Assembly (NCBI GenBank): GCA_964508185.1
Contig: CAZDSS010000002.1
Span: 6,674 to 70,673, forward strand
Direction: 5' to 3'
Length of the DNA: 64,000 nucleotides
DNA from: an uncultured Sphingomonadales bacterium
GTDB lineage: Bacteria > Pseudomonadota > Alphaproteobacteria > Sphingomonadales > Govanellaceae
In this document: positions 5,578 through 29,259 of the stretch, piece after piece
How the letters are laid out: every line of letters starts with the position of its first letter
How positions within the stretch are numbered: the first letter of the stretch is position 1
Made by a program: the position numbers and the translations under genes
Notes under the pieces: generated by a model
Told to the model about the DNA's origin: nothing
The model's input: the letters and a program-made list of their open reading frames with translations, nothing else
Databases searched by the model: none

Positions 5578-5620
5578 ACTTGTCTGGACAAATTTTCATG
5601 TAATGTACGAACTGTCAAGC
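5578..5620 (-). promoter_or_regulatory. Putative promoter plus operator for the TBDR/MFS/FAD-oxidase operon (operator copy 1, TTGTCTGGACAA at 5580-5591)
   Basis: Read on the minus strand: TTGACA (5618-5613), a 17-nt spacer containing TG, AAATTT, then the palindrome TTGTCCAGACAA. A 43-nt block is 34/43 identical to 29217-29259. Confidence 0.6.
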
Positions 5621-5646
5621 AGCCAAGCATCAAAGGGGAGAAAACG

Positions 5647-6327
5647 ATGGCGCTTTCCGATCTGGCCTATCCCAGTCTGGTCTATTTCCACATGTTTCTC
5701 TTCGTCATGTGGCTTGGCGCCGACGTGGGCGTCTATCTCGCCGGCCAGCATTTCCGAAAACGCGAAATTTATTCGCTGGATCAGCGGATTGCGCTGTTGA
5801 AGCTTCTCGTTCTGATCGACATGACGCCGCGCTCCGCCTGGGCGCTGATGGTGCCGGTGTCGCTCTCCGTCGTCACCATGGGCGGCTACTGGGCGGTGCC
5901 CGCCTGGCTGCTGATTCTCGCCTGGGTCATCGCCGGCATCTGGCTGTGGCTCATCTGGGACGCCCACTATCACGACATGACGCCGCGCGCCGCCCGCAAC
6001 CGGCGAATCGAGAGCTGGCTCCGAATCGGGCTCACGCTGTTCTATCTCTGGCTCGGCATCCAGTCGCTGCTGACCAACGCGCCGCTCGAGCCCGACTGGC
6101 TGGCGTCCAAGGCGCTTCTGTTCGGCCTGATCTTCGCCGCCGCCATCATGATCGACGTCACCTTCAAGCCGGTGGGGCCGCAGCTTGGCCGGCTCCTCAA
6201 GGAAGGCTCCAGCGACGAGACGGAAATTCCGCTGCGCCGGACCATGGACCGCACGCGGGTCTGGGTGCGCATCACCTATCTGCTTCTGGTCATCATCTCC
6301 TATGTGGGCCTGGTGAAGCCATTCTGA
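5647..6327 (+). CDS. Polytopic membrane protein of unknown function (paralog family M, copy 1)
   Basis: 226 aa starting at the ATG at 5647, preceded by AGGGGAG. About 6 TM segments. Shares H-x6-WLGAD and IDxxPR motifs with 26481-27143 and 35900-36583. Confidence 0.8.
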   Translation: MALSDLAYPSLVYFHMFLFVMWLGADVGVYLAGQHFRKREIYSLDQRIALLKLLVLIDMTPRSAWALMVPVSLSVVTMGGYWAVPAWLLILAWVIAGIWLWLIWDAHYHDMTPRAARNRRIESWLRIGLTLFYLWLGIQSLLTNAPLEPDWLASKALLFGLIFAAAIMIDVTFKPVGPQLGRLLKEGSSDETEIPLRRTMDRTRVWVRITYLLLVIISYVGLVKPF

Positions 6328-6359
6328 TGGCTTCACCGCGGCGGATGGCGAAGCGCGAC

Positions 6360-6387
6360 TTGAAATTTGTCTGGACAACCTTATAAG
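6360..6387 (+). promoter_or_regulatory. Putative sigma70-like promoter with embedded operator copy 2 (TTGTCTGGACAA at 6367-6378)
   Basis: TTGAAA (6360-6365), a 16-nt spacer, then TATAAG (6382-6387). The palindrome lies inside the spacer, directly upstream of the CitE-like gene. Confidence 0.55.
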
Positions 6388-6407
6388 CTGTGACCGGGAG
6401 TGAGGAA

Positions 6408-7244
6408 GTGAGCAGAGTGGTATCCTTCGCCAGCATGTTGTTCGTGCCCGGCAGCCGGCCGGAACGCTTCGCCAAGGCGCTGGCGAGCGGCGCCGACATC
6501 GTCTGCATCGACCTTGAGGACGCGGTGCCCGCGGCCGACAAGGCGGCGGCGCGGGCGGCGGCCCTTGAGGCCATTGCCATCATCGACGGACGCGAACGGC
6601 TGGCGCTGCGCATCAACGGCGTCACCACCCGCGCGGGCCTCGAGGATCTGGTGGCGCTCGCCGATGCGGCCGTACCCCCTGCCCTTCTGTTCGTGCCCAA
6701 GGTGGAAAGCAGCGCCGAGATCGCCGTCATCCGCGGCGCTCTGGGCGACAAGGCGCCGGGCATCGTGCCGCTCATCGAAAGCGTCGCAGGCATGGATGCG
6801 ATTCGCGACATCGCCCGGGCGCCGGGTGTCGCCGCCATGATGTTCGGCGGCGGCGACTTTGCGGGCGAACTTGGCGTCGAACTCACCTGGGACGCGCTTG
6901 CGACGGCGCGCGGGCTTTTCGTCATGGCCTGCGCGGGGGCCTGCATTCCGGCGATCGACGTTCCCTATCTCGCCCTCGACGACGCGGAAGGGCTGCTGGC
7001 CGAATGCAGGGCCGTGAAGCGCCTCGGGTTCACCGCCAAGGCGGCGATCCATCCGGCGCAGGTTGCCGCCATCAACGAGACATTTCGTCCCACCGCCGCC
7101 GAGATCGCCGAAGCGCGCGAGGCGGAAGCCGCCTTCATCGCGGCGAACGGTGCGGCGGTCAGATTCAAGGGCCGCATGCTCGAAGCACCGATCATGCGCC
7201 GCTATCAGAGGATTCTAGCAATGGAGAAGATTCACAATGCGTGA
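6408..7244 (+). CDS. HpcH/HpaI aldolase / citrate lyase beta (CitE)-like acyl-CoA lyase. Candidate citramalyl- or malyl-CoA lyase.
   Basis: N-terminus SMLFVPGSRPERFAKALASGADIVCIDLEDAV is typical of CitE-like lyases. I chose the GTG at 6408 (GGGAGTGAGGAA upstream); in-frame GTGs at 6390 and 6417 are alternatives. Confidence 0.85.
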   Translation: MSRVVSFASMLFVPGSRPERFAKALASGADIVCIDLEDAVPAADKAAARAAALEAIAIIDGRERLALRINGVTTRAGLEDLVALADAAVPPALLFVPKVESSAEIAVIRGALGDKAPGIVPLIESVAGMDAIRDIARAPGVAAMMFGGGDFAGELGVELTWDALATARGLFVMACAGACIPAIDVPYLALDDAEGLLAECRAVKRLGFTAKAAIHPAQVAAINETFRPTAAEIAEAREAEAAFIAANGAAVRFKGRMLEAPIMRRYQRILAMEKIHNA

Positions 7245-7746
7245 CGGCGTGATCGAAGTCGAACCCGGACGGTATCGCGAAACCTTCGGGCGTTATTTCG
7301 AGGACTTTGTGGTCGGTCACATCTACGAGCACCGACCCGGCCGGACTATCACGGACACGGACAATGTCTGGTTCACCTTGCTGACCATGAACACCCATCC
7401 GGCCCATTTCGACTATGAATTCGCGAAGAAGACCGAATTCAAGAAGCCGCTGGTCTGCTCGCCCTTCACGGTCGCCCTCATGGTCGGAATGAGCGTCTCC
7501 GACATCAGCCAGAAGGCGGTCGCGAATCTCGGCTGGGACAATATCCGTCTCACCCACCCGCTGTTCCCGGGCGACACCCTTTATGCGGAAAGCGAAGTGA
7601 TCGACAAGCGTGAATCGAGCTCGCGCCCGCAGCAGGGCATCGTCACCGTGAAGACCACGGGCAAGAACCAGCACGGCGACATCGTCTGCACCTTCAACCG
7701 CACCATGCTGATCTGGAAGCGCGGCTTCGGTCCCATGGACGACTAA
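7237..7746 (+). CDS. MaoC-like (R)-specific enoyl-CoA hydratase. Candidate itaconyl- or mesaconyl-CoA hydratase.
   Basis: 169-aa hot-dog fold protein. The sequence context RTITDTDNVWFTLLTMNTHPAHFD is typical of the MaoC dehydratase family. It overlaps the CitE-like gene by 8 nt. Confidence 0.85.
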   Translation: MRDGVIEVEPGRYRETFGRYFEDFVVGHIYEHRPGRTITDTDNVWFTLLTMNTHPAHFDYEFAKKTEFKKPLVCSPFTVALMVGMSVSDISQKAVANLGWDNIRLTHPLFPGDTLYAESEVIDKRESSSRPQQGIVTVKTTGKNQHGDIVCTFNRTMLIWKRGFGPMDD

Positions 7747-7758
7747 GGACCGCCTGAA

Positions 7759-8928
7759 ATGAGTGAAAAAGTCATACGCAGCATCGACCCCGACGAGGAG
7801 GCAGCGCTGCTCGATTCCATCGACAAATGGATCGAGCGCGAGGTCCGGCCCGTGGTCATGCATCACGACCACAACGACATCTGGCCCGCCCATCTCGTGG
7901 AGCAGATGAAGGAAATGGGCCTCTTCGGCGCCACCATTTCCCAGGAATACGGCGGCCTCGGCCTGCCGGCGACGACCTACGCCAAGATCATCTCGCGCAT
8001 CTCGTCCTACTGGATGGCGCTCACCGGCATCGTCAATTCCCACCTCATCATGGCGGCGGCGGTCGAGCGCTTCGGCACGCCCGAACAGAAGGAGGAATGG
8101 CTGCCCAGGTTCGCAAGCGGCGAGATCCGCGGCGGCCTCGCGCTCACCGAGCCTGACGCCGGCACCGACCTCCAGGGGATCCGCACCACGGCGGTGCGCG
8201 ACGGTGACGATTACGTCATCAACGGCACCAAGACCTGGATCACCAACGGCATCGAAGGGAGCTGCTTCGCCCTTCTCGTCAAGACCGATCCCAATGCCGA
8301 GCCGCGCTACAAGGGCATGAGCTTCTTCATCGCCCCCAAGGGCCCCGGCTTCACCGTGGGCAAGAAGCTCGAGAAGCTCGGATACAAGGCAATCGACAGC
8401 GCCGAGCTCGTCTTCGACAACTACCGCGTGCCGGCCAAGAACCTGATCGGCGGCGTCGAGGGCCAGGGCTTCTTCCAGGCGACCGGCGGTCTCGAGCTCG
8501 GCCGCATCAACGTCGCCGCCCGCGGCGTCGGCCTTGCCGAAGGGGCGCTGCGGCTTGCGACCGAATATGCCCAGATCCGCAAGACCATGGGCAAGCCCAT
8601 CTGCGAGCATCAGGCGATCCAGCTCAAGCTCGGCGAGATGGTGACCCGGGCGCGCGCCGCGCGGCTTCTCGTCATGGATGCGGCCAGGGCCTATGACCGC
8701 GGCGAACGCTGCGACATGGAAGCGGGGATGGCCAAGTTCTTCGCCTCCGAGGCGGCGGTGCGCAATTCGGAAGAAGCCATGCGCATCTTCGGCGGCTACA
8801 GCTATTCCAAGGAATACGAGATCGAGCGCTTCTACCGCGACGCGCTTCTGATGTGCATCGGCGAAGGCACCAACGAGATGCAGCGCATCATCATCGCCAA
8901 GCAGTGGGTCAAAAGGAATCCGGTGTGA
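7759..8928 (+). CDS. Acyl-CoA dehydrogenase
   Basis: 389 aa. ACAD motifs GLALTEPDAGTDL and FGGYSYSKEYEIERFYRDA...IGEGTNEMQR. Confidence 0.92.
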   Translation: MSEKVIRSIDPDEEAALLDSIDKWIEREVRPVVMHHDHNDIWPAHLVEQMKEMGLFGATISQEYGGLGLPATTYAKIISRISSYWMALTGIVNSHLIMAAAVERFGTPEQKEEWLPRFASGEIRGGLALTEPDAGTDLQGIRTTAVRDGDDYVINGTKTWITNGIEGSCFALLVKTDPNAEPRYKGMSFFIAPKGPGFTVGKKLEKLGYKAIDSAELVFDNYRVPAKNLIGGVEGQGFFQATGGLELGRINVAARGVGLAEGALRLATEYAQIRKTMGKPICEHQAIQLKLGEMVTRARAARLLVMDAARAYDRGERCDMEAGMAKFFASEAAVRNSEEAMRIFGGYSYSKEYEIERFYRDALLMCIGEGTNEMQRIIIAKQWVKRNPV

Positions 8929-10118
8929 GCAGCAATCTTCCCCTCACGGGCTTCCGCGTCCTGTCGGCGGAGCAGTATGGCGCCGCGCCCTATGGCACCA
9001 TGTTCCTCGCCCAGCTCGGCGCGGAGGTCATCAAGATCGAGCAGCCGGGTGCGGGCGACACCGCGCGCGCGGTGGGGCCGTTCTTCCTCCGCGACAACGA
9101 AAGCCTGTTCTTCCAGACCTTCAACCTCAACAAGCGGTCGATCACCCTCGACCTCAACAGCGCCGAGGGCAAGGAGATCCTGCACCGCCTGGCGCGCGAC
9201 GCCCATGCCCTGGTCAACAATCTGCGCGGCGACCTGCCGGAGCGCATGGGCCTTACCTACAAGCACATGCAGGAGACGAACCCGGCCCTCGTCTGCGCCC
9301 ATCTTTCGGCCTATGGCCGCGATACGGAGCGGGCCAAATGGCCGGGCTACGACTATCTCATGCAGGCGGAAGCGGGCTTCCTGTGGATGACCGGCGAGCC
9401 CGACGGGCCGCCCACCCGCTTCGGTCTGTCCATGGTGGATTTCATGACCGGCACCACGATGGCCATCGGCCTGCTCGCCGCCATGATGGACGCCCAGCGC
9501 AGCGGCAAGGGCCGCGACGTGGACGTGGACCTTCTCTCCACCGCGCTCCATCAGACGAGCTATCCCGCCATGTGGTATCTGAATACGGGCCACAAGGTGG
9601 AGCGCGTCTCCCGCTCCGCCCATCCGTCCGTGGTGCCGAGCCAGATGTTCCGCACCGCCGACGGCTGGATCTTCGTCATGGCGCAGCTTCCCAAATTCTG
9701 GAAGCTTCTGGTGGAGCGCATCGGCCGTCCCGAGCTTGCGGACGATCCGCGCTTCAGGACGCCTGCGGACCGGCTTCAGAACCGCGACGTCCTGATCCCC
9801 ATCCTCGAGGACGTCTTCATGACGCAGACGACGGCCCACTGGCTCGATCTCCTGGCCGGGGACATGCCGGTCGCGCCCGTCTACAAGCTGGATGAGGCGC
9901 TGGACAATCCCTACATGGCCCGGGTCGGCATGCTGGACAAGGCGCCCCATCCCGACCGCGAGGACATGCGGGTGCTCGCCAACCCCATCCGCATCGACGG
10001 CAAGCGCCTGCCCAACCGGGCGGCCCCCCTGCTCGGCATCGATACGGACGACGTTCTGCGTGAAGCGGGCTACAGCGCCGACGACATCGCGGCCTTCCGC
10101 GCCAAGGGTGTGATCTGA
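8925..10118 (+). CDS. Family III (CaiB/BaiF) CoA-transferase
   Basis: The GTG at 8925 overlaps the ACAD stop (GTGA). PLTGFRVLSAEQYGAAPYGTMFLAQLGAEVIKIEQP is the typical family III N-terminus. Confidence 0.88.
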   Translation: MSSNLPLTGFRVLSAEQYGAAPYGTMFLAQLGAEVIKIEQPGAGDTARAVGPFFLRDNESLFFQTFNLNKRSITLDLNSAEGKEILHRLARDAHALVNNLRGDLPERMGLTYKHMQETNPALVCAHLSAYGRDTERAKWPGYDYLMQAEAGFLWMTGEPDGPPTRFGLSMVDFMTGTTMAIGLLAAMMDAQRSGKGRDVDVDLLSTALHQTSYPAMWYLNTGHKVERVSRSAHPSVVPSQMFRTADGWIFVMAQLPKFWKLLVERIGRPELADDPRFRTPADRLQNRDVLIPILEDVFMTQTTAHWLDLLAGDMPVAPVYKLDEALDNPYMARVGMLDKAPHPDREDMRVLANPIRIDGKRLPNRAAPLLGIDTDDVLREAGYSADDIAAFRAKGVI

Positions 10119-10122
10119 GACC

Positions 10123-11214
10123 ATGGCGAAGCTTGCCGGAATCAAGGTCATCGACCTGTCGCAGTTCCTGCCGGGGCCGATGCTCACCCTCATGATGGCG
10201 GACCAGGGGGCAGACGTCATCAAGATCGAACCGCCTGCGGGCGACCCCGCGCGCGGGCTGGAACCCTATGAAGCGGGCCAGTCCATCTGGTTCCGCAATC
10301 TCAACCGGGGCAAGCGCAGCATCGCGCTCGACCTCAAGTCGGAAGCGGGAAAAGAGAAGCTCTGGGAGCTGATCGCCGACGCCGACGTCTTCGTCGAAGG
10401 CTTCCGCCCGGGCGTCATGGCGCGGCTCGGCTTTTCCTACGAGGCGGTCGCGGCGCGCAATCCGCGCATCGTCTATTGCTCCGTCTCCGCCTTCGGGCAG
10501 GAGGGGGAACTGTCGCACCATCCGGCTCACGACCTTGCGGTGCAGGCCTTGTCCGGCTTCCTGTCCGTCAATGACGGGCGCGACGGGCGGCCCGTGGTGC
10601 CGGGGGTGCCCTCCGCCGACATGGCGGCGGGGCTGACCGCGCTCTCGGCCGTGCTCATGGCATTGATCGGCCGCGAGCGCACGGGACGGGGCGACCATAT
10701 CGACGCCGCCATGTTCGACAGCCTGATCCCCTGGTGCGCCCATATCGTGGGGACGGCGATTCATGGCGGCGAGCCGCCGCGCTCCCACAGCCAGCGCTCC
10801 CTGGGCGGCGCCGCCTTCTACAACGTCTATGAAACCGCCGATGGAAAGTTCGTGGTGCTGGGCGGGCGCGAGACCAAGTTCGTCGCGAACCTCCTCAACG
10901 CCCTCGGCCGTCCGGACCTCATCCCGCTCGGCAGCGAGCCGCCGGGACCGGCGCAGGCGCCCCTCGTCCGCTATCTCGAGGAAACCTTCCGCGCCCGCAC
11001 GCGCGACGAATGGGTCGCCTGGTTCGCCGACAAGGACGTGGCCTTCGCCCCCGTCCTCGACTTCCGCGAGGCCTTGTCCGCGCCCCACGTCGCCGAACGG
11101 GGCATCGTCGTCGAGGCCGACGGCGCCCACCATATCGCGCCGGCCATCCGCTTCCGCTCCGAACCGGACTGGAAGCCGCGGCCGGCGCCGGAGCTCGACG
11201 CCGATGGCCGCTGA
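10123..11214 (+). CDS. Family III (CaiB/BaiF) CoA-transferase, second tandem copy
   Basis: 363 aa. LAGIKVIDLSQFLPGPMLTLMMADQGADVIKIEPPAGDP is the typical N-terminus. Confidence 0.88.
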   Translation: MAKLAGIKVIDLSQFLPGPMLTLMMADQGADVIKIEPPAGDPARGLEPYEAGQSIWFRNLNRGKRSIALDLKSEAGKEKLWELIADADVFVEGFRPGVMARLGFSYEAVAARNPRIVYCSVSAFGQEGELSHHPAHDLAVQALSGFLSVNDGRDGRPVVPGVPSADMAAGLTALSAVLMALIGRERTGRGDHIDAAMFDSLIPWCAHIVGTAIHGGEPPRSHSQRSLGGAAFYNVYETADGKFVVLGGRETKFVANLLNALGRPDLIPLGSEPPGPAQAPLVRYLEETFRARTRDEWVAWFADKDVAFAPVLDFREALSAPHVAERGIVVEADGAHHIAPAIRFRSEPDWKPRPAPELDADGR

Positions 11215-11215
11215 C

Positions 11216-11977
11216 CTAGCCGTCCACCTCCATATGCATGGAGTAGGCGAAGCGGTCGCCGGGATGGTGGCTGGCGGAGAATTCCAGCACGCGCCCGCTC
11301 GCGTCGTAATAGCAGCGGAGAATGCGCAGGCAGGGGCTGCGGCGCGGAATGCCGAGCTCCGCCGCCACCGCCGTGCTCGCCGGCACCGCCTGGATGTCCT
11401 GGGTCACCCGCACGATCTTCGTGCCCGACAGCCGTTCCAGTTGCTGGAAGATGGTGTCCTGGTTGGGCTTGATGGCCTTGGCCGCCGCGAGAAGGTCGGG
11501 ATGGATGTAGGTGTCGGTGAGCGCGATGGGCTCCGCCTGGCCGGTGCGCGTGCGCAGGCCGCGGAAATGATACCAGCGGCGCTTGTCCGTGATCCCCGCA
11601 TGGACGGCAAGGGACTTCGGCAGCGGCACCTCGCCCTGGGCCGTGAACAGATAGCGGGTGTCCCGCGCGTATTGCAGGATTTCGCCCACGTTCGACAGCG
11701 GCTGATAGAGCGCCCCGCCGCGGGCGGACGCCGGCTGGATCACCGTGCCCGAGCCCTGGCGTCGCTGGATGAGCCCTTCCGCCTGCAGGGAGCGCAGCGC
11801 CTCGCGCACGGTGAAGCGGCTCACCTCGAAACGGGCGCAAAGCTCGCTTTCGGTCGGGAACGGATTGGGGTGAAGATAGTCGCCGCGAAGGATCTCCGCG
11901 CGCAGTTCGTCCGCAAGTTCCTGATAACGGGGCTTGCGCGCCCGCTTCACGGCTACCGCCTGACTGGAACCCGGCAA
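11216..11977 (-). CDS. GntR-family transcriptional regulator, HutC subfamily (winged HTH plus UTRA domain)
   Basis: 253 aa. N-terminal GntR wHTH (LPTESELCARFEVSRFTVREALRSLQAEGLIQRRQGSGT). The C-terminal domain has the length and pattern of a UTRA effector domain. Confidence 0.88.
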   Translation of the reverse strand: MPGSSQAVAVKRARKPRYQELADELRAEILRGDYLHPNPFPTESELCARFEVSRFTVREALRSLQAEGLIQRRQGSGTVIQPASARGGALYQPLSNVGEILQYARDTRYLFTAQGEVPLPKSLAVHAGITDKRRWYHFRGLRTRTGQAEPIALTDTYIHPDLLAAAKAIKPNQDTIFQQLERLSGTKIVRVTQDIQAVPASTAVAAELGIPRRSPCLRILRCYYDASGRVLEFSASHHPGDRFAYSMHMEVDG

Positions 11978-12020
11978 GGCAATACTCCTTTTCTCAAATT
12001 GGCTCCCGGGAGACTGCCCG

Positions 12021-13268
12021 GTGATTGACGCGAATTATAGCTTAACAGAACGGCTTGCCCAGCATTGTCTGACGCCCGTTTCAGAAGTTATCCGGACAAA
12101 ATCCCGGCTTCATCTTCTGGACTGGCTGGGCTGCGTCATGGGTGCCCGGCGGGGCGAGGTCGCCCATGCGCTGAAGCATATGGATGATCTCTCGCCTGCA
12201 GGCAAGGCGGCATGGCTCGGCAACGTGCTGGAGATGGACGACGTCCATCGCACGGCGATCCTCCATCCCGGCCCGGTGGTGTGGCCGACGGTGCTCGCCG
12301 CCGCCCGCGGCCACGGGATGGACGAGGTGCTGGACGCCGCCGTCCGGGGTTACGAGGCGATGATTTCGATCGGCGCGACCTTCGACGCCCGTCATTACGC
12401 CCACTGGCACAACACGGCGACCGCGGGCCTGTTCGGGGCGGCTGCAGCCGCCGCCGCCTTGCAGGGCGCCGACCGGGCGCAGCTCGTCGCCGCCCTCGGC
12501 CTTGCGGGATCGGTGACCGGCGGCTTCTGGCAGATGCGGCACGAGCCGGTGACCGCCAAGCAATGGCACATCGCCCATGCCATGCGCACGGGGCTGGAGA
12601 CCGCGGCCTTCGCCCTCAGGGGGATCACGGGCCCCCGCTTCATCCTGGAAGGGCCGCAGGGGCTCTATGCCGGAACCTGCGACGCCGCGAAGCCCATGCT
12701 GCTGGCGGACGGGTGGCGCATCAGCGAAGTGAGCTTCAAGCCCTGGGGCGCCTGCCGCCACGCGCATCCCGCGATCGATGCGGCCCTCGAGCTCAAGAAG
12801 CAGGGCGCGCTTCAGGGCCCGGTGACCGTCGCCACCTACCGCGACGCGCTCACCTTCTGCGACCGGCCGGAGCCGCGCAGCGTGATCGAGGCCAAGTTCT
12901 CCCTCCAGCACGCGGTGGCGGTCGTCATGGAGCGGGGCGTGCCGGAGCTCGCCGATTTCGAGCCCGAGGCCATCGCCGCCCTTGCGGATGCCCGCAAGCT
13001 CGTGACGGTGGAGGAGGATCCCGCGCTCACCGCCGCCTACCCTGCCCATTTCGGCGCGCGGGTGACAAGCGCTGGCGCAAGCGTCACCCTGGCGGATACG
13101 CTGGGCGATCCCGAGCGGCCGCTCGATGAAGCGGGCGTCGTCGCCAAGGCGCGGGCGCTCATGGATTGGGGCGGGCTCGGTGGGCGGGCTGCGGACGAGG
13201 CGATCGCCGCCGCCCTTCACGGCGACCGCCCCGACGCTATCGTGGATATTCTGGAGCGCTGGCTATGA
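12021..13268 (+). CDS. MmgE/PrpD family protein
   Basis: 415 aa with a GTG start. Family-typical segments LDWLGCVMGA, HPGPVVWPT and KPWGACRHAHPAIDA. Confidence 0.85.
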   Translation: MIDANYSLTERLAQHCLTPVSEVIRTKSRLHLLDWLGCVMGARRGEVAHALKHMDDLSPAGKAAWLGNVLEMDDVHRTAILHPGPVVWPTVLAAARGHGMDEVLDAAVRGYEAMISIGATFDARHYAHWHNTATAGLFGAAAAAAALQGADRAQLVAALGLAGSVTGGFWQMRHEPVTAKQWHIAHAMRTGLETAAFALRGITGPRFILEGPQGLYAGTCDAAKPMLLADGWRISEVSFKPWGACRHAHPAIDAALELKKQGALQGPVTVATYRDALTFCDRPEPRSVIEAKFSLQHAVAVVMERGVPELADFEPEAIAALADARKLVTVEEDPALTAAYPAHFGARVTSAGASVTLADTLGDPERPLDEAGVVAKARALMDWGGLGGRAADEAIAAALHGDRPDAIVDILERWL

Positions 13269-17243: not shown

Positions 17244-17259
17244 ATCAAGGAGAAGTCCC

Positions 17260-20924: not shown

Positions 20925-20931
20925 TCAGTTC

Positions 20932-20968: not shown

Positions 20969-20988
20969 CAGTGGTGCCATCCCTGTTG

Positions 20989-21963
20989 TCAGGGAAGAAG
21001 AATGCTCGAACCCGTGGTGCGGCGGCCTTCGAGATCCGCATGGGCCCTGGCCGCGTCACGCAAGGCATAGCGCTGGCCGATGGTGACCGAAAGCTTGCCT
21101 GAGCGCAACATGTCCCAGACCCGCGCGGCGCCCGCCGCCCGTTCGCCGGGTTCCGCGTAATAGTGATAGAGCGCCGGGCGCGTATGGAACAATGATCCCT
21201 TGCGCGCGAGCGGTCCCATGTCCACGGGCCCCGTGGGCGCGTCCGCATTGCCGTAGACGACGATGAGGCCGCGCACCCCGCAGCTGTCGATGGAGGCATC
21301 CCACGTCGCCTTGCCGACGCCGTCGAACACCACGCGGACACCGGCGCCGCCGGTGATTTCGCGCACCCGCGCCGCCGTGTCCTCCTCGGTATAGAGAATG
21401 AGGTGATCGGCCCCGGCGGCCCTCGCCGCTTCGGCCTTGGCGGGCGTGCTGACCGTGCCGATGACGACGGCGCCGACGGCCTTCAGCCACTGCAGGAGCA
21501 GAAGCCCGAGCCCCCCCGCCGCCGCATGGACGAGTACGGGTGAGCCCGGTTCCACCTTCGCGCAGCGTTCCACCAGGAACTCCGCCGTGCAGGCCTTGAG
21601 GAAGGCGGCGGCCGCCACTTCGTCCGAAATGTCGTCGGGGATGGGGAACCACAGGAATTCGTCCAGCACCCGCTCGGTCGCGTAGCTCCCGATGTCGGGG
21701 CCGAAGGTCACGACGCGGTCACCGGGCTTGAAGCGGGTGACCCCCTCGCCCACCGCTTCCACGACGCCTGCGGCCTCGACCCCGAGGCCGGTGGGCAGCG
21801 ATACGGGATAGATTCCGCGCCGGTGATAGGTGTCGATGAAATTGACGCCGATCGCGGTGTGGCGGACGCGAACCTCCGTGCCGCGCGGCGCCGGAATGTC
21901 GACCTCCTCGAAGCGGATGACGTCGGGCGAGCCGGTCTCATGGACGCGGGCGACAAGCGCCAT
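20989..21963 (-). CDS. qor: NADPH:quinone oxidoreductase (zinc-independent MDR family)
   Basis: 324 aa. MDR pattern GVNFIDTYHRRGIYP and nucleotide motif AAAGGLGLLLLQW. Confidence 0.85.
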   Translation of the reverse strand: MALVARVHETGSPDVIRFEEVDIPAPRGTEVRVRHTAIGVNFIDTYHRRGIYPVSLPTGLGVEAAGVVEAVGEGVTRFKPGDRVVTFGPDIGSYATERVLDEFLWFPIPDDISDEVAAAAFLKACTAEFLVERCAKVEPGSPVLVHAAAGGLGLLLLQWLKAVGAVVIGTVSTPAKAEAARAAGADHLILYTEEDTAARVREITGGAGVRVVFDGVGKATWDASIDSCGVRGLIVVYGNADAPTGPVDMGPLARKGSLFHTRPALYHYYAEPGERAAGAARVWDMLRSGKLSVTIGQRYALRDAARAHADLEGRRTTGSSILLP

Positions 21964-21974
21964 GTCGCCCTCCG

Positions 21975-22283
21975 TTACCAGGTCTTGCCGCCGACCCAGT
22001 CGCCGGCGGCGGCATTGAAGGCGCTGATCTCGATGCGATCCCAGATGTCGGCGCGGAAATAGGGATCCTGCTCCAGAAAGGCGCGGGCGTCTTCAACGCT
22101 TTCCGCCTTCACCACCAGAAGGGATCCCACGAAATTCCCCGCCTCGTCCCGCAGCGGCCCGGCGACCGCGATGCGGTCCAGCACCTTTTCCACATGGGCG
22201 AGATGCTGCATGAGCTTTTCCTTGCGCACCGCGCCGGCGCCGGGCTTGTCGCGGGTGACGATCGCATAGAGACCAGACATCAT
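21975..22283 (-). CDS. YciI-family protein
   Basis: 102 aa with a YciI-like pattern (H...GPL...G...DPY). Confidence 0.75.
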   Translation of the reverse strand: MMSGLYAIVTRDKPGAGAVRKEKLMQHLAHVEKVLDRIAVAGPLRDEAGNFVGSLLVVKAESVEDARAFLEQDPYFRADIWDRIEISAFNAAAGDWVGGKTW

Positions 22284-22301
22284 TCTTGCTCCCCTGTTGT
22301 C

Positions 22302-22331
22302 GTTCGCCCGGACGACCCCGCCCGGGCGAAC
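22302..22331 (-). terminator. Stem-loop downstream of the TBDR gene. Possible terminator or mRNA stabiliser.
   Basis: A 10-bp inverted repeat (GTTCGCCCGG 22302-22311 / CCGGGCGAAC 22322-22331). There is no U-tract, so the function is uncertain. Confidence 0.35.
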
Positions 22332-22344
22332 ATGACCTAGCCTA

Positions 22345-24729
22345 TCAGAACGCCTTGCGGACGATCACGCCCCATTCGGCCTTCGAGGGCGGCGTGATGC
22401 TGAAGGCGCGGACCGAATCGCCCGTCGCCGCAGCCGGCACGCCGAGATCGATATAGCGCATGATGCCGTCCGGCGTCTCGTTGCCGAGCACGTTCTTGCC
22501 GTAGGCGGTGACGCGCCAGCCGTTGTTGTCGGTCACGCCCGCCTGCAGGTTGACCTTGGTGGCGTCGCCGGTATGGGCCAGGTTGTGCACCTGGGCGTAG
22601 AAGCGGCTGCGATAGATCACGTCGATGCCGGAGAAGAACGCCCAACCGTTTCCGATCTCGTGATCGAAGCGCAGGCCGATGGCGCCGTTATGCTTGGATA
22701 CCAGCGGCGGACGCTGGCCGACGATGGACGCCGCCTCGCGGCAGCCCGGAAGGTCGAGATTGATGGCCGAGCCGGTCTTGCAGGCCGCGCCCAGCAGCAG
22801 GACCGCATGATCGGGCTCGACACCCTCGCGGATCTTGGCATCCAGATAGGTGTAGTTGAACTGCAGGGTGAACATGCGGTTGGCGAGCGGCAGCGCGCCT
22901 TCCACCTCGATCCCGCGGATCCGCGTCTTGCCGATATTGGCCTTGTAGGAGTCGATCAGGGTTTCGGTCACATAGGTGTTGGTCAGGACCTGGTTCTTGT
23001 AGTTCTGCCAGAAGGCCGAAACGTTCAGGTAGTCGAAGCCGAACTTCGAGGTCTTGAAGCCGATTTCGTAGTTGATGAGCTTCTCTTCGTCATAGGTGGT
23101 GGTCGGCGCGGTCAGCGGGTTGAAGCCGCCCGGCGAGTTGCCCTGGGAATACTGGGCATAGACCGACCAGTCGCGGGCGGGCGACCAGTTGACGGTGACG
23201 CGCGGCAGGGTCGCCTTGAACTTGGCGTTGCGCTCGCCAGCCGTGCCGACGATCTGGTCGGGGTTCGGGTACAGGAGCTCCGCCAGTTCCTCGTCGCTGA
23301 AGAGGTCGCCGGCGCGGTAGGTGACGCCGGTCGAGCGCACCTTGTCGATCTGGCGACGCAGCTCGGCGCCGATGGTGAGGTCCTCGGTCACGTCCAGATC
23401 GATGCCGCCGAAGAAGGCGAGGTTCTTGACCCGCGTGGCATCAGGCAGGATGTCGAGGCCCACTTCCGTCGCCTCCACATAGTCCGGATTGGGCTTCACG
23501 CGGTCGCGGCTGGTGAACACACCGACGCGCCAGCGGAAGCGATCCGCGCCGGGCGAGGTCAGGCGCCATTCATAGGTCTCGGTCTCGCGCTTCAGGCCGT
23601 CGGTGGTGTTGAACGGCGACTGGCTGCAGTCCTGGTTGCCGATCGGAATGAAGGCGCAGGCGCCGCGGAACAGGAAGAAGTTGCGGTCGTCGAAGGACTG
23701 GTCGGTGCCCACCACCTGGACCATGTCGCTGTAGCCCACCTGGAACGACGCCTCGTAGCCCGAGCCCATGATGTCCCAGCGAATGTCGCCGATGAAGCGG
23801 TCGGCGTTGCGGTAGAGGCCCGGCCGCATCAGGCGGTCCGTATTGATCCCGTAGGACTTGGGAACCTGCACCTCGCCGCAGTAGTACTGGCGGGTATCCA
23901 GAAAGCAGTTGTTCTCGGACGCGGGCTGCAGGCCGATGGCATAATGGCCGTCGTCGTCCTTCTGATGGATCCACTGCACGGAGGCGCTGATGTCCGGCGT
24001 CGGATCAAGGAACACGCCCGCCATGTACTGATGCGTCTTCTCGTCGCCAAGGCGCTCGCCCGGGATCAGCGCATTGTCGTACTGGCCGTTCACGTCATAG
24101 AACTTGAAACCCGCCTGAACGCCGAGCCAGGGGGTGACCGGCGTCGAAAGGAAAGCGCTGAATTCCTTGCGGTTGTAGTTGCCCACATTGGCCGTCACCT
24201 GCCCCTCGAGCTCCTCGCCCGGGCGCTTCAACACCACGTTGACGGCGCCGCTCAGGGTGCCGCGGCCGAAGACCGCCGACTGCGGGCCCTTGATGACCTC
24301 GACCCGCTCCACATTGGCGAGATCGAGCGACGAGAAGTCGCCGAGATAGGGCACGCCATTGAGGAACACGCCCACCTTGCCCTCGGCCATGAGGATGTTG
24401 GACGCGCCGCGGATCACCGGACGGTCGCCGTTGCGGCCGAAGGCCTCCTGGATCTGGAAGCCGGGGGTGAATTCGGCGATGTCCACGATGCTCTGCACCA
24501 GCCGGTCTTCCATGCGCAGGGAGTCGAAGGCGCTGACGGCGATCGGCACGTCCATCAGGCTTTCCTCGCGCTTGCGCGCCGTGACCACGATGTTCTCGAG
24601 GGTCATGGACTGGCTGGACGCCGTGGGCGCGGCGTCCTGCGCCTGGGCGTAGACGGGCGCCGCGAAGGCGACGGCAGCCGCGGACAGCATGAGGTTGAGG
24701 CGGCGAAGAGAATGCAGTCTGTGGGTCAT
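22345..24729 (-). CDS. TonB-dependent receptor
   Basis: 794 aa. Signal peptide ending AAPVYAQA. Plug region IVVTARKREESLMDVPIAVSAF and VEVIKGPQSAVFGRGTLSGAVNV. C-terminal Phe. Confidence 0.92.
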   Translation of the reverse strand: MTHRLHSLRRLNLMLSAAAVAFAAPVYAQAQDAAPTASSQSMTLENIVVTARKREESLMDVPIAVSAFDSLRMEDRLVQSIVDIAEFTPGFQIQEAFGRNGDRPVIRGASNILMAEGKVGVFLNGVPYLGDFSSLDLANVERVEVIKGPQSAVFGRGTLSGAVNVVLKRPGEELEGQVTANVGNYNRKEFSAFLSTPVTPWLGVQAGFKFYDVNGQYDNALIPGERLGDEKTHQYMAGVFLDPTPDISASVQWIHQKDDDGHYAIGLQPASENNCFLDTRQYYCGEVQVPKSYGINTDRLMRPGLYRNADRFIGDIRWDIMGSGYEASFQVGYSDMVQVVGTDQSFDDRNFFLFRGACAFIPIGNQDCSQSPFNTTDGLKRETETYEWRLTSPGADRFRWRVGVFTSRDRVKPNPDYVEATEVGLDILPDATRVKNLAFFGGIDLDVTEDLTIGAELRRQIDKVRSTGVTYRAGDLFSDEELAELLYPNPDQIVGTAGERNAKFKATLPRVTVNWSPARDWSVYAQYSQGNSPGGFNPLTAPTTTYDEEKLINYEIGFKTSKFGFDYLNVSAFWQNYKNQVLTNTYVTETLIDSYKANIGKTRIRGIEVEGALPLANRMFTLQFNYTYLDAKIREGVEPDHAVLLLGAACKTGSAINLDLPGCREAASIVGQRPPLVSKHNGAIGLRFDHEIGNGWAFFSGIDVIYRSRFYAQVHNLAHTGDATKVNLQAGVTDNNGWRVTAYGKNVLGNETPDGIMRYIDLGVPAAATGDSVRAFSITPPSKAEWGVIVRKAF

Positions 24730-24799
24730 TTGCAGAAACCTCCCTGACGGATTTGCAACTTCTATTGGTTCGAATTCAGCCTAGATTTGGCCGCGTATC

Positions 24800-24811
24800 T
24801 TGTCCAGACAA
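24800..24811 (-). promoter_or_regulatory. Operator copy 3 (TTGTCCAGACAA), 71 nt upstream of the TBDR start codon
   Basis: The minus strand reads ACTTGAAGGAAAATTTGTCTGGACAAGAT. The flank and orientation are the same as copy 2. It lies in an AT-rich 183-bp intergenic region. Confidence 0.6.
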
Positions 24812-24912
24812 ATTTTCCTTCAAGTCTTTCCAGATACCGCTCATATCCAACCTAAACTGCGCTTTGATGATCTGAGTTCAGGTAAAAGATTAACTCAAAA
24901 TTGGATCCAACA

Positions 24913-26496
24913 TTAACGGCCCAGCCCGATGACGCCGGGATTCATCAGGCGACCGGGATCCAGGATCGCCTTGATGCCTTTGAGAAGCTCGGCCGGAACG
25001 GGGGACAGCGCCTCGAGATAGGGATAGGTCCGGCCGATCTGGTTCGATGCGGCCCCGAGCTTTCGGAAAAGCTGCACCGTCTCGAGGCGCAGCTGGTCTA
25101 CGAGCTTGCGGGCCGCGGGATTGGTCTCAGGCTCCGTCATCTTCTGCAGGAAGGCGGGCTCCGGCGCGCGGCGGTGGAGCGGCTGCCAGGAATCCTTCCA
25201 GTGGAACACGGGCTCGAAGCTGAAGGCATGGTTGGAGAGCGCCGAGGCGAGCCGGGTAAGCCACACGCCATGCGCCGCCATTTCGGAAAGATAGGGCGCG
25301 ATCATGGCGTCGAACGCCGCGATAAGATCGCGCGCGTCGGAATGCGCCACCTTGGCGTTCAGCGCCGCCCAGCGGCTGCCGTCGGCGCCGAGCACCGCAT
25401 TGAGATCCTGGAAAAGCGTCGCCCGCGCGACCCGCGGAATGGTGGGCGCGACCGGCCGCCCGCCGAGATCGGCGGCGATCCGCGCCGCGCGACGGAGGTC
25501 GTGCCGCACGGCGGCGGCGCAGCGCCCGGCCGCCGTCATGTGGAGGGAATAGTGCCCCGGCGGGATGAACTGCGTCCCCCCGCGGGCGAGGGACAGAAGC
25601 GCCGATGCCGCGCGCAGCGGTCCGCCCGCACGGCGCGCGACGGAGAGCGCCGTCCGCAGTTTTTCGCCGCCATCCGCCGCGATCGCCCCGGTGGAGACGG
25701 GATCGAGCACATAGATTTCTTCGGCGAGATCCGCCCGCGCAATGGCCGAAAGCGCATCGGCCGCATGCGCGAGATCGGCGAAGGCGAAGCTCAGATAGTC
25801 CTCATGCCGCGGCGCTTCGATGAGGCGCAGGCTTGCCGCCGTCTTGATGCCGAAGGCGCCGCCGTCATGGGTGAAAAGGCCGGTGAGATCGGGCCCGAAG
25901 CTGCGGAGGAACGGCTTCGCGCCCACGGCGAGCGCCCCCTGCCCCGTCCTCAGGATGCGCCCGTCGGCCAGCACCACTTCGAGCCCCAGCACCATCTCGG
26001 CGGCGGAGCCGTAGCGGGCCGAGCCGAAGAACAGCGCCCCGTGGGACAGCCCGCCGCCGACCGTGGCGCCCGCGCCGGAAAAGGTGCCGAAGAACGGCAG
26101 CCGCAGCCCCCGCGGCTTCAGCGCCGCCGCGATTTGGCGCCAGGTGACGCCCGCTTCCACCGTCATCACCATGTCCTGTTCCGATATGTGGATGATGCGG
26201 TCGAGGGCCGAAAGGTCGAAGGTCACGGACCTGTCCGTCGGCGGCGCATAGCCGCCCGTATAGCTGAGCCCGCCGCCCCGCGGCAGGACGGCATAGCCGC
26301 GGGACGTTGCGGCGGCGACAGCGGCGGCAAGGGCATCCCGGTCCTGCGGCCGCACCACGGCGGCCGGCAGCGCGCCCGTCACATGGAGATCGGCGGCGGC
26401 AAGCCGCCGGGCCTCCATGTCCGTGAGGACGGAGCCCTTGCCCGCGGCGCTTTCCAGCGCCGCCAGCAGGTCCTGGTCGGTCACATGGGTTTCCAC
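24913..26496 (-). CDS. FAD-binding (PCMH-type, GlcD-like) oxidoreductase, paralog of 144-1712
   Basis: Motifs AVLPRGGGLSYTGGY and VEAGVTW...LKPRGL. I trimmed the ORF-track 650-aa ORF to the in-frame GTG at 26496; the extension overlaps the real membrane gene. The GTG at 26484 is an alternative. Confidence 0.82.
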   Translation of the reverse strand: METHVTDQDLLAALESAAGKGSVLTDMEARRLAAADLHVTGALPAAVVRPQDRDALAAAVAAATSRGYAVLPRGGGLSYTGGYAPPTDRSVTFDLSALDRIIHISEQDMVMTVEAGVTWRQIAAALKPRGLRLPFFGTFSGAGATVGGGLSHGALFFGSARYGSAAEMVLGLEVVLADGRILRTGQGALAVGAKPFLRSFGPDLTGLFTHDGGAFGIKTAASLRLIEAPRHEDYLSFAFADLAHAADALSAIARADLAEEIYVLDPVSTGAIAADGGEKLRTALSVARRAGGPLRAASALLSLARGGTQFIPPGHYSLHMTAAGRCAAAVRHDLRRAARIAADLGGRPVAPTIPRVARATLFQDLNAVLGADGSRWAALNAKVAHSDARDLIAAFDAMIAPYLSEMAAHGVWLTRLASALSNHAFSFEPVFHWKDSWQPLHRRAPEPAFLQKMTEPETNPAARKLVDQLRLETVQLFRKLGAASNQIGRTYPYLEALSPVPAELLKGIKAILDPGRLMNPGVIGLGR

Positions 26497-27143
26497 AGGC
26501 TGACGACCACGATTCCGGCGATGAACACCCAAAGCAGGATCAGCACGCTGGTGGCCCGCCAATAGGTGCGGCGGATGATGGCGTTGGTCTCGTCCGTCGG
26601 CCCCTCCTTGGCCATTCTGGCCCAGGTGCGGAAGTGGGACAGAAGCGCGATGCGGATCCCGACGCCCGACGCCATCACCCCGGCAAAGAGGCCGAGCTTC
26701 CAGCGCAGGAACAGCGGCATGGGCCAGTCGCCGCCGATGAGCCCGAAGGCGAGCGCGATGAGGATGACCATCAGCACATAGCGCGAACCGCGGTCGAAGG
26801 TCTGGAGCTTCTTGCCCACGGGCGTCTTGCGCAGGCGGTGCGTCACCTCCACAAAGGCGAGCCACAGGGCGGCAATGATGCCGGCGGCGATGGCCACGGT
26901 CTCGCCCCCGGGGAACCAGCCGTAAAGGGCGGCGATCGCCGTCCCCAGCCCCGCCTGCAGGATGAGGGCGTAGCGCACATGCTGGTCCACCTTCATGACA
27001 TGGTCCATGAGGCGCGAGCGGTCCGGGAACGGCAGCTCGTCATGATAGCAGACATAGCGGTAGGTGCTGTTGATGACCAGCTCGGACCCGAGCCAGTAGC
27101 CGAGCACGGTGATATGGGCGGCGAGCAGCCAGGAAATGATCAT
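26481..27143 (-). CDS. Polytopic membrane protein of unknown function (paralog family M, copy 2)
   Basis: 220 aa, about 6 TM segments. Motifs H-ITVLGY-WLGSE and KVDQHVR. The ATG overlaps the stop of the upstream family-S gene (ATGA at 27140-27143). Confidence 0.8.
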   Translation of the reverse strand: MIISWLLAAHITVLGYWLGSELVINSTYRYVCYHDELPFPDRSRLMDHVMKVDQHVRYALILQAGLGTAIAALYGWFPGGETVAIAAGIIAALWLAFVEVTHRLRKTPVGKKLQTFDRGSRYVLMVILIALAFGLIGGDWPMPLFLRWKLGLFAGVMASGVGIRIALLSHFRTWARMAKEGPTDETNAIIRRTYWRATSVLILLWVFIAGIVVVSLWKPM

Positions 27144-27892
27144 CGCGCGTCTCCCGTGGCGTCGTAAGCGGTGAGTTCGTAGGCGGTCATCATGTAGCCG
27201 CCGACGGTGGCCTTCAGCAGCACGTAATCACCATCGGCCGTGCACCAGAGATCATAGGGCGGATAGGCTTCGGGCAGCCCCGGCACGTCCACCATGCGGA
27301 AATGGAGGGCGTCGAACCGTCCCGCCGCCACGGTGAGCTTGGTCGGGCCCACATACTGGATCGCGAGATCGGTGCGGAAAAGAAGCGGCCCCGTCGCCCC
27401 GCGGTGGTCTGGGGACGACAGCAGGATGTCCCGGATCACCTGGACGCCTGGGCCTTGAGAGAGGTCGTAGAGGGAGAGAAGAAACCCGTCATTGACCATG
27501 GCATGGTTGCCGAAGGCGACCAGAGGCTTGTCGAGCGCCATCGTCTGGGTGACGCGCCCTTCCGCCGTGGTGAAGGCCTCGCACTCGGCCAGATCATCGG
27601 CAAAGCGGAACCAGCCCGAGCCGCGGAAAGCCCCGCCCACCGCGATGCGCACGAAGCCCTCGAGCGGCCGGTTGTCGGGGCCGAGGCGCAAGCTCACGTC
27701 GCGCACCACGGCGGGGGCGTCATCGATCTCGCCGTGGGCGGCGATCACCCGCGAGCCGTCCTGATGGATGTCCATGCGGAACTGCTCACGCCCGCGCTCG
27801 GCGCCCTTCCGTTCGGGCTTGTCGCTCGTATAGCGGATATAGCCCGTGATGCTGCGGCGAACGCCGCCGGTCGCTTGCCTGTTCGCCATCAT
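27140..27892 (-). CDS. Cytoplasmic protein of unknown function (paralog family S, copy 1)
   Basis: 250 aa with no signal peptide. AGGAGGGGGA lies upstream of the ATG. Collinear with 36580-37290: DGSR, GxGWxRF, FGxH, SSxxHxGxxGP, TVxAGxF, LWC, GGYxxTxYEL. Confidence 0.8.
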   Translation of the reverse strand: MMANRQATGGVRRSITGYIRYTSDKPERKGAERGREQFRMDIHQDGSRVIAAHGEIDDAPAVVRDVSLRLGPDNRPLEGFVRIAVGGAFRGSGWFRFADDLAECEAFTTAEGRVTQTMALDKPLVAFGNHAMVNDGFLLSLYDLSQGPGVQVIRDILLSSPDHRGATGPLLFRTDLAIQYVGPTKLTVAAGRFDALHFRMVDVPGLPEAYPPYDLWCTADGDYVLLKATVGGYMMTAYELTAYDATGDAR

Positions 27893-27923
27893 CTCCCCCT
27901 CCTAGAACCTGCTCCCCCCTGCC

Positions 27924-29057
27924 TCATTTCCAGTTGGACTTGTCGCGCAGGTAGCGGGCTGCATCCTGCAGGTCCTCCGGCTGGTAATCGGCGAAGAGAT
28001 TGGGCGAGTAGCGCGGCACATAGCCGTTGAGCACGTCCATGTAGAGCGCGGGATGAAGCGTGGGCTGGCGATGCCGGGCGCGGAAGGCGCCGATGGGAAT
28101 GCGCGCGGTGACCAGCGTCTCGTTCGGCGACTTCGCGATCGCCATCGCCTCGCCGTCGGGACCATAGATGGCGGAGCCGCCCGCATTGCTGTCCTCGAAG
28201 AAGGGCGAGCCGGGCGAGATCGCCTGGTTGGCGACGGCCACATAGACGCCGTTGTAAAGCGCGGTCGCCGCCACATCGAGCGGGCTGAAGCCGCCCGTCG
28301 CCGTGCGCAGGATCACTTCCGCCCCCTTGATGGCCATGGCGCGGAACAGTTCGGGCTCCCGCTGCACGGAACTCATGGCGATGTTGCCGAGGGGCGTCTG
28401 CACCACGGGAATGACGGCGTCCTGCCCGTACATTTCCACGTAACGGTCGTAGACGTCGTAGATGGTGGTGGTGAAAAGCTCGATCTGGCCGCCGAACGCG
28501 CCCTTGATGTTCCGCGCCTTCCATTCGCGCGCGAGAATCTTGCCGTCGGGCCCGATCATGGTGGTGATCGACAGCACATGGCCGGGCCAGTCCTTGTCGC
28601 GGGCATAGGAGCCGAACACCAGATAGATGCCGCGCTCCCGCGCCTTCCTGGCGAGCGCCTCCGTCTCCTCGCCGGGGATCTCGATCGCGACCTTCAGGAT
28701 GTCCTTCCGCGTCCATCCCGCGCCGAAGCCGGTGATGGGGAATTCGTGGAAGAACAGCATGTCCGGCCCCATGCCGAAGCCGAATGCCGCGTCGATGAGG
28801 TTCAGCATATGCTGCAGATTGGCCTTGCGGCTCGCATCCACCCGGCCGAGATCGACGGGAATCGAGCGGGACTGGGCGACGCCCAGGGTCCACATTTCCT
28901 TGGCGAGCGGCACGGTCGGATATTTCCCGTCCGCCCCGATCTCCACAGCCTTGCCCGGCGTCGCCGCCCCGGCGATGGAGGGCGCAAGACCCAGGGCCGC
29001 CGTCAGGCCAAGCCCGCCGGCAGCGCCCAGAAGCCCGCGGCGCGTGAGGGCGCTCAT
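27924..29057 (-). CDS. Tat-signal-bearing carbon-nitrogen hydrolase (nitrilase superfamily) fold protein lacking the catalytic cysteine
   Basis: 377 aa. Twin-arginine signal MSALTRRGLLGAAGGLGLTAALGLAPSIAGAA. CN-hydrolase blocks FFHEFP, REWKARN, GNIAMSSVQREPELFRAMAIKGAEVIL and YNGVYVAVANQA...GGSAIYGPDGE. The translated protein contains no Cys residue. Confidence 0.8.
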   Translation of the reverse strand: MSALTRRGLLGAAGGLGLTAALGLAPSIAGAATPGKAVEIGADGKYPTVPLAKEMWTLGVAQSRSIPVDLGRVDASRKANLQHMLNLIDAAFGFGMGPDMLFFHEFPITGFGAGWTRKDILKVAIEIPGEETEALARKARERGIYLVFGSYARDKDWPGHVLSITTMIGPDGKILAREWKARNIKGAFGGQIELFTTTIYDVYDRYVEMYGQDAVIPVVQTPLGNIAMSSVQREPELFRAMAIKGAEVILRTATGGFSPLDVAATALYNGVYVAVANQAISPGSPFFEDSNAGGSAIYGPDGEAMAIAKSPNETLVTARIPIGAFRARHRQPTLHPALYMDVLNGYVPRYSPNLFADYQPEDLQDAARYLRDKSNWK

Positions 29058-29216
29058 TTCGCACCTCCGCGGCGTTCGACCCGGCGACCATGGGATTCGG
29101 CAACCGCCGCGCGGGCGACAGAACTGGAAATTCTCATCTGGGCTCCCCTTTGTGCTTGATATGATCGGGCGGAACCGTTCCGGCCCCGGTGCCTTCCCCG
29201 CGCTCCGCCCCGCCCC

Positions 29217-29259
29217 ACTTGTCTGGACAAATTTTCACGTTAATCGGGGGCTGTCAAGC
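29217..29259 (-). promoter_or_regulatory. Putative promoter plus operator for the CN-hydrolase/S/M/FAD-oxidase operon (operator copy 4, TTGTCTGGACAA at 29219-29230)
   Basis: Same architecture as 5578-5620: minus-strand TTGACA (29257-29252), a 17-nt spacer with TG, AAATTT, then the palindrome. 34/43 nt are identical to copy 1. Confidence 0.6.

Follow-up and report, generated by a model that had tools for sequence, protein, structure and literature searches.

Two near-identical promoter-operator blocks in a Sphingomonadales catabolic island and their likely repression by a GntR/HutC-family regulator

A 64,000-nucleotide stretch of the genome of an uncultured Sphingomonadales bacterium (assembly GCA_964508185.1, contig CAZDSS010000002.1; the whole stretch is referred to below as the window) contains two near-identical 43-nt blocks, at positions 5578-5620 (block 1) and 29217-29259 (block 2). 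Each stands upstream of a minus-strand operon, headed in the first case by the gene for a TonB-dependent receptor and in the second by that for a CN-hydrolase. The present analysis indicates that each block is likely to be a sigma-70-type promoter joined to an operator, repressed by a GntR/HutC-family protein encoded in the same catabolic island, with both blocks belonging to one local regulon and block 2 being a relocated module.

Block 1 consists of ACTTGTCTGGACAAATTTTCA-TGTAATGTACGAA-CTGTCAAGC and block 2 of ACTTGTCTGGACAAATTTTCA-CGTTAATCGGGGG-CTGTCAAGC. With equal spacing and 34 identities in 43 positions (21 in the first segment, 4 of 13 in the middle and 9 in the last), the pair described in an earlier note on this DNA is present as reported. 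Even when up to three mismatches are allowed, the common 21-mer is matched at two places in the window, and at none in 100 shuffles. On the minus strand, each block carries a TTGACA hexamer (5613-5618 in block 1, 29252-29257 in block 2) that scores 6/6 as a -35 box, followed by a 17-nt spacer ending in TGA and by the hexamer AAATTT. The extended -10-like TG and the weak -10 together (TG-A-AAATTT) occupy positions 5590-5598 in block 1 (hexamer at 5595-5590) and 29229-29237 in block 2 (hexamer at 29234-29229). The palindrome TTGTCTGGACAA, located at 5580-5591 in block 1, between the receptor gene (minus) and the gene for a membrane protein, M1 (plus), recurs at 29219-29230 in block 2. It reads TTGTCCAGACAA on the minus strand (5591-5580 and 29230-29219), and in both blocks its first two bases are the last two T residues of AAATTT, an overlap of 2 nt. 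Repression by occlusion, as proposed in the earlier note, would thus fit the predicted geometry, in which the palindrome covers the -10 and start-site region.

The core of the operator is the 12-bp palindrome TTGTC[TG]GACAA, with TG or CA at its centre. Exact copies of the 12-mer number five in the 2.9-Mb genome (5580, 6367, 24800, 29219 and 40708), all in the window and all intergenic, and a reversed control pattern has no copy in the 2.9-Mb assembly. Represented by five exact copies and one with a single mismatch, the palindrome is a regulon operator that extends beyond a two-copy feature. The copy at 6367-6378 lies in the promoter of the lyase operon, inside the 16-nt spacer between plus-strand TTGAAA (6360-6365) and TATAAG (6382-6387); the orthologous promoters read TTGACT-N6-palindrome in three relatives (G358, G277 and G222) and CTTGAC-N7-palindrome in a fourth (G259). 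The copy at 24800-24811, which lies 71 nt upstream of a second TonB receptor gene (22345-24729, minus), forms TTGAAG-N6-palindrome on the minus strand and has an orthologous site in G358. The fifth, at 40708-40719, is 23 nt upstream of a LysR gene (39752-40684, minus) and is faced by a plus-strand operon for a ba3-type haem-copper oxidase, with TTGCCG on the plus strand 4 nt upstream of the palindrome; the island repressor may also control this oxidase through the 40708 copy. The degenerate copy TTATCCGGACAA (12088-12099, one mismatch) is a candidate autoregulatory site 111 nt upstream of the GntR gene, and its equivalent at the same place in G358 is exact.

Copies of the pattern are also found in other settings. 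A sixth copy in this genome (G000), TTGTCCGGACAA, is the only one centred on CG and lies on another contig (C10:40743-40754), upstream of genes for acetyl-CoA acetyltransferase and acetoacetyl-CoA reductase (phaA/phaB-like) adjoined by a polyhydroxyalkanoate (PHA) synthase gene and a PhaR-like gene. It may be the site of another regulator or a chance occurrence. In each relative from the bacterium's own family, the pattern occurs once or twice, with at least one CG-centred copy. A further genome of the order, G160, contains 41 palindrome copies, compared to 3-10 in other island carriers, and there the palindromes may be part of a repeated element.

The conservation of the promoter was assessed in the 30 best orthologues of the receptor from an even sample of 400 Sphingomonadales genomes, selected without use of the DNA motif; they are 53-65% identical to the window receptor, whose own copy is included in the 30. 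The palindrome occurs upstream of the receptor gene in all 30. A sense-strand TTGACA with at most one mismatch is located 21 nt from it in 13 of the 30, as in both blocks, and 9-10 nt from it in another 12. No other gap between 0 and 49 nt accounts for more than one case, and the antisense side of these 30 promoters shows no enrichment. Within the gap-21 class (class A), GCTTGACA and the operator are invariant, the spacer varies save for a frequent CATGAAAAT beside the operator, and the -10 hexamers follow the consensus rAAnTT, in which the second base is A and the sixth is T. Judged from these alignments, the TTGACA at a fixed gap is the phylogenetic footprint of a putative -35 box, with the operator over the predicted -10 and start site. 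Because CTTGACA is fixed at 21 nt from the palindrome across many genera and the spacer is variable, selection appears to act on the functional elements. A candidate -35 element for a plus-strand M1 promoter at block 1, TTGACG (5555-5560, 19 nt from the palindrome), is without conservation in the relatives.

The difference between the two gaps (21 versus 9-10 nt) equals the length of the operator, and therefore either of its A/T-flanked edges falls 17 nt from the -35 box. With a 17-nt spacer, the -10 hexamer at gap 21 is composed of four flank bases and the operator's first TT, and at gap 9 of the operator's last ACAA and two flank bases. The lyase promoters represent a third layout, in which the operator lies within the spacer; protein bound to the operator would keep RNA polymerase off the promoter in all three layouts. 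Some gap-9 promoters contain a second palindrome 42 bp upstream (G342, G298, G254, G389, G271 and G182; loci L137, L138, L142, L143, L145 and L133, respectively), and in G191 and G208 (L134 and L135) a one-mismatch upstream copy lies 43 bp away. In many promoters of the gap-9 class the -35 box is therefore bracketed by operators, which suggests cooperative binding or looping.

The same geometry bears on a different interpretation of the conserved element, according to which TGTCAAG is not a -35 box at all, serving instead as an auxiliary half-site for the same regulator or as the site of a second factor (e.g., LysR), with the promoter elsewhere. Such an arrangement would account for the TGTC common to the element and the palindrome half (CTGTCA matches TTGTCY at 4/6 positions), for the offset of 32 nt from the first half-site, which is close to three helical turns, and for the weak -10. 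The element is, however, an exact -35 consensus, including the leading C in alphaproteobacterial style, and is always in the sense orientation relative to the downstream gene. Moreover, the two discrete gaps, each with an A/T-rich operator edge 17 nt away, are indicative of polymerase geometry rather than of a fixed repressor geometry, and the island stretches retrieved from G277, G222 and G259 yielded no LysR homologue. We consider the half-site interpretation improbable, and the element is treated below as a -35 box.

In the fetched stretches of G358, G277, G222 and G259, the islands retain the regulator (62-72% identity) and carry 5-7 palindromes at the starts of orthologous genes; in the first three of these genomes, 6-7 palindromes are clustered in a single island of 35-65 kb. 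A scan of species-representative genomes returned at least 118 exact copies of the CTTGACA-N21-operator module, mostly in Sphingomonadales and other Alphaproteobacteria. The chance expectation for the same collection is about 17 matches (a rough estimate based on uniform base composition), which fits the scattered hits in unrelated phyla. Among the 109 modules that could be evaluated, 70 are followed in sense orientation by a homologue of an island gene, namely 49 receptors, 8 coenzyme A (CoA)-transferases, 7 major facilitator superfamily (MFS) transporters, 2 hydratases, 2 lyases, 1 oxidase and 1 S protein.

The protein that binds the palindrome is most likely the GntR/HutC-family regulator of the island (11216-11977, minus), the proposed repressor, which has a GntR winged helix-turn-helix at its N-terminus (Pfam, 4e-21) and a UTRA effector domain at its C-terminus (Pfam, 8e-23). 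Of the 400 genomes of the order, 40 have an orthologue of this regulator (E <= 1e-60). Three or more palindromes occur in 38 of these 40 versus 13 of the 360 genomes without an orthologue, counts which overstate independence, since genomes of one order are related, and do not amount to a formal test. A search of 40 near relatives yielded just homologues of 30-36% identity, the true orthologues appearing first in the order-wide sample. Of the regulators in the island, the GntR gene alone has been retained in each of the four relatives that were studied in detail. Among solved structures, NagR and DasR come closest (phmmer E ~2e-19, distant but alignable). In the NagR-DNA structure, Arg38 reads G-5, Arg48 reads G-4 and Gly69 anchors the wing on the site GTGGTCTAGACCAC (PMC4333415). 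The latter two residues correspond to Arg54 and Gly75 of the regulator, both invariant in 29 orthologues, and Arg38 corresponds to Ser44, a position occupied by Ser, Thr, Ala or Gly in every orthologue. The operator, TTGTCYRGACAA, is identical to the idealised NagR site at positions -6, -4, -3 and -2 of each half; it has G at -4, as in the NagR site, and T rather than G at -5. With Arg54 and G-4 kept and Ser44 paired with T-5, the protein and the DNA therefore depart from NagR at matching positions.

It is unlikely that a different protein binds the operator (a LysR protein of the island, or a second GntR paralogue on contig C73) or that the GntR protein acts as an activator. In favour of such readings, any palindrome of 14-16 bp also fits the loose LysR pattern T-N11-A, one copy lies 23 nt from a LysR start codon, the autoregulatory site is rare, and palindromes are enriched in the 13 genomes that have no close GntR orthologue. 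On the other hand, the retention of the GntR gene as sole regulator in four relatives, its co-occurrence with the palindrome and the residue-to-base correspondence with NagR all favour the island GntR protein as the binder, and an operator placed over the -10 and start or in the spacer has the geometry of a repressor site. HutC proper was also considered as an identity for the regulator and was rejected: the score against the HutC model is 101 bits (cut-off 220, TIGR02018), and hut genes are absent from the island. The literature on the exact operator sequence yielded an unrelated mycobacterial factor, MscA, alone, and nothing relevant was found on a sphingomonad regulon of this kind or on a link between itaconate and a GntR regulator.

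Several observations weigh against repression of the two blocks by the GntR protein, in addition to the relatedness of the genomes counted above. The hexamer AAATTT agrees with TATAAT in just two of its six bases, the A in second and the T in sixth place, and is preceded by TGn; a consensus promoter scanner called no promoter at either block. The minus-strand promoter of the earlier note is supported in its TTGACA, 17-nt spacer, TG and overlapping palindrome, which are read exactly and are backed by the comparative data, and weak in its -10, which falls below the scanner threshold. The 13 palindrome-enriched genomes without a close regulator orthologue are a further point, although 4 of them, all of one genus, have a GntR homologue of 34-36% identity adjoining a palindrome. 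A copy with at most one mismatch precedes the GntR gene in only 4 of 30 cases (G000 and 29 orthologues), and autoregulation was for this reason dropped as general support for the pairing of regulator and operator. Finally, binding by the regulator, its sign as a repressor and release by an effector are all steps that we infer.

In the proposed mechanism, RNA polymerase would use (C)TTGACA as the -35 box, the 17-nt spacer ending in TGA and the weak -10 AAATTT, and transcription would start inside the palindrome, near positions 5583 and 29222. A dimer of the GntR/HutC-family regulator on the palindrome would block recognition of the -10 and formation of the open complex, and, judging from the family, a small-molecule effector in the UTRA domain would release the repressor. 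The same operator would guard at least three further promoters of the window (6367, 24800 and 40708), and the two blocks, which share it with those sites, would therefore belong to one local regulon, predicted to cover TonB-dependent uptake, amide hydrolysis and an itaconate-like C5-dicarboxylate CoA pathway. In the second operon, the block 2 copy and a terminator hairpin upstream of it would provide the CN-hydrolase operon of this genome with its own promoter. A repressor positioned over the -10 and start site is a textbook mechanism, and the switch as such would be an ordinary bacterial gene switch.

Block 2 is located in a 351-nt intergenic region upstream of the CN-hydrolase gene. The CN-hydrolase gene and its upstream neighbour are directly adjacent in G358 and G222, with neither an intergenic region nor an operator between them. 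Apart from the module of about 45 nt, nothing homologous to the 351-nt region was detected in the rest of the genome or in the fetched loci. The regions upstream of CN-hydrolase orthologues are mostly without the palindrome, since the gene is operon-internal there, and are thus unusable as a footprint of block 2. Block 2 is 86% identical over 44 nt to the receptor promoter of Sphingobium estronivorans (G358), a better match than that to block 1, against which only a 24-nt segment aligns; blocks 1 and 2 have in common a GT flank and a CA centre that are missing from the other gap-21 promoters. The most economical reading would be that block 2 arose long ago as a relocated copy of a receptor-type module and has since been kept by selection. 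The earlier note had argued for selection on promoter elements rather than recent duplication of the whole segment; the first half of that claim agrees with the conservation of the elements, and the opposition itself is a false alternative, as block 2 has the appearance of a relocated copy.

Between block 2 and the gene upstream (29409-30041) lies a strong GC-rich hairpin followed by UUUCU (29283-29356, minus), directly 3' of that gene, and it is likely to be its terminator, parting it from the block 2 promoter. The enclosing stretch of 141 nt (29270-29410) has a folding energy of -67.5 kcal/mol (z-score -2.6). A search of the hydrolase 5' leader and hairpin against Rfam gave sub-threshold matches to miRNA-type hairpins alone and no known riboswitch. 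A 27-codon upstream open reading frame (ORF) at 29053-29136 (minus), with a good ribosome-binding site (AAGGGGAG), has a stop codon that overlaps the CN-hydrolase start (ATGA); situated in a predicted leader of 165 nt, it may be translationally coupled to the hydrolase.

A relocated block raises the question of whether both blocks derive from a small mobile or repetitive element and are alike through recent spread rather than through function. The genome-specific intergenic region around block 2, of which only about 45 nt are homologous, and the abundance of the palindrome in G160 would be in keeping with such an element. Nevertheless, the two intergenic regions share the 21-mer alone, with no other significant match to either in the genome, block 1 has counterparts at orthologous sites in 30 genomes from many genera, and the spacer has diverged around invariant functional elements. 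An origin by recent spread is therefore very improbable. Neither a miniature inverted-repeat transposable element (MITE) nor a repetitive extragenic palindromic (REP) element was recognized, the sites being at orthologous promoter positions. Selection on a repressible promoter, including a relocated one at block 2, remains our preferred explanation.

The operon downstream of block 1 comprises three minus-strand genes, coding for the TonB-dependent receptor TBDR1 (3008-5503; Pfam Plug and TonB_dep_Rec_b-barrel), an MFS transporter (1709-2992; Pfam MFS_1) and, as the last gene, a FAD-linked oxidase (144-1712; Pfam FAD_binding_4). The divergent gene for the membrane protein M1, which has no known family, is at 5647-6327 (plus). 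The operon downstream of block 2 spans 24913-29057 (minus) and codes for the CN-hydrolase (27924-29057; Pfam CN_hydrolase), which bears a twin-arginine translocation (Tat) signal, for the proteins S2 (27140-27892) and M2 (a membrane protein, 26481-27143), neither of which could be assigned to a family, and for a second FAD-linked oxidase as its last gene (24913 to ~26480; Pfam FAD_binding_4). The two operons had been described as paralogous. This description does not hold: the FAD-linked oxidases at their ends are the only related pair (39% identity), and their first genes, for a TonB receptor and a Tat-exported CN-hydrolase, are unrelated.

The operator at 6367 precedes genes for a RipC/Ccl-like lyase, a MaoC hydratase, an acyl-CoA dehydrogenase and two family III CoA-transferases, and the island pathway also contains PrpD-like proteins. 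The lyase scores 234.8 bits against the RipC/Ccl model, below the cut-off of 375. The start of the lyase ORF was probably called too early; GTG at 6408 or 6417, behind GGGAG or GAGGAAG, is a likelier start. Similarly, in the LysR ORF at 29761-30945 the helix-turn-helix begins only at residue 97, and the true start is near 30030.

Among six genomes of the bacterium's own family (G001-G006), none has an orthologue of the regulator and one has a match to the receptor, at about 50% identity (window positions 1-45000 considered), and the best matches to that part of the window all derive from another family of the order. On these sequence comparisons, the island was probably acquired horizontally, or else the contig was binned with the wrong genome.

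A more extended scenario can be put forward only tentatively, as a possibility that we hold to be rather less probable than not. In this scenario, the A/T-flanked operator doubles as a -10 element, so that a -35 box at 21 or 9-10 nt suffices to make a repressible promoter, and the resulting module of about 45 nt would have been copied in front of genes for the receptor, the MFS transporter, the CoA-transferase, the S protein and, in this genome, the CN-hydrolase. Horizontal spread of the island among Sphingomonadales and other Alphaproteobacteria would have brought whole operons out of LysR control and under that of GntR, and the regulon would be the signature of an uncharacterised TonB-dependent route for a C5-dicarboxylate compound bearing an amide.

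The analysis defines the cis-regulatory code of a large, conserved and uncharacterised catabolic island of the Sphingomonadales, which combines TonB receptors, MFS transporters, amidases, FAD oxidases and an itaconate-like CoA pathway with two families without known function. With the operator known, the extent of the regulon can be traced in hundreds of genomes, and the regulator offers a handle on the inducing substrate. The blocks also provide a clean case of promoter-operator modules kept at base-pair spacing across genera, with one operon that has apparently gained such a module.

Among known systems, the closest parallels are the GntR/HutC repressors NagR (YvoA) of Bacillus subtilis and DasR of Streptomyces, which act on dre operators and have the same architecture of winged helix-turn-helix and UTRA domains (PMC4333415, PMC4918961). 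The operator register is also alike, with a GTC-NN-GAC core palindrome, and the regulator retains the Arg for reading G-4 as well as the wing Gly. The operators differ at the centre, which is CCGG or CTGG here and CTAG for NagR, as well as at -5, where T replaces G and the Arg that reads it in NagR is replaced by Ser, Thr, Ala or Gly; the genes controlled here, in addition, are not for the use of amino sugars. Placement of an operator over the -10 and start or in the spacer, with one repressor serving several promoters, recalls occlusion at LacI O1 and at LexA boxes. Unlike in those systems, part of the -10 comes from the A/T flank of the operator itself, and left- and right-edge layouts both occur among orthologous promoters. 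HutC and TreR, which are repressors of catabolic operons, have operators of the TTGTATATACAA type, similar to the present one in the outer TTGT...ACAA arms and in the length of 12 bp and different in the central four bases (CCGG or CTGG here, ATAT there). Itaconate-degradation operons, in turn, are under the control of LysR regulators (ItcR or RipR). They resemble the island in their RipC/Ccl-like lyase, MaoC hydratase, acyl-CoA dehydrogenase and family III CoA-transferases, whereas the island has a GntR/HutC regulator in place of the LysR protein, and its regulon adds TonB receptors, MFS transporters, amidases and the S and M proteins.

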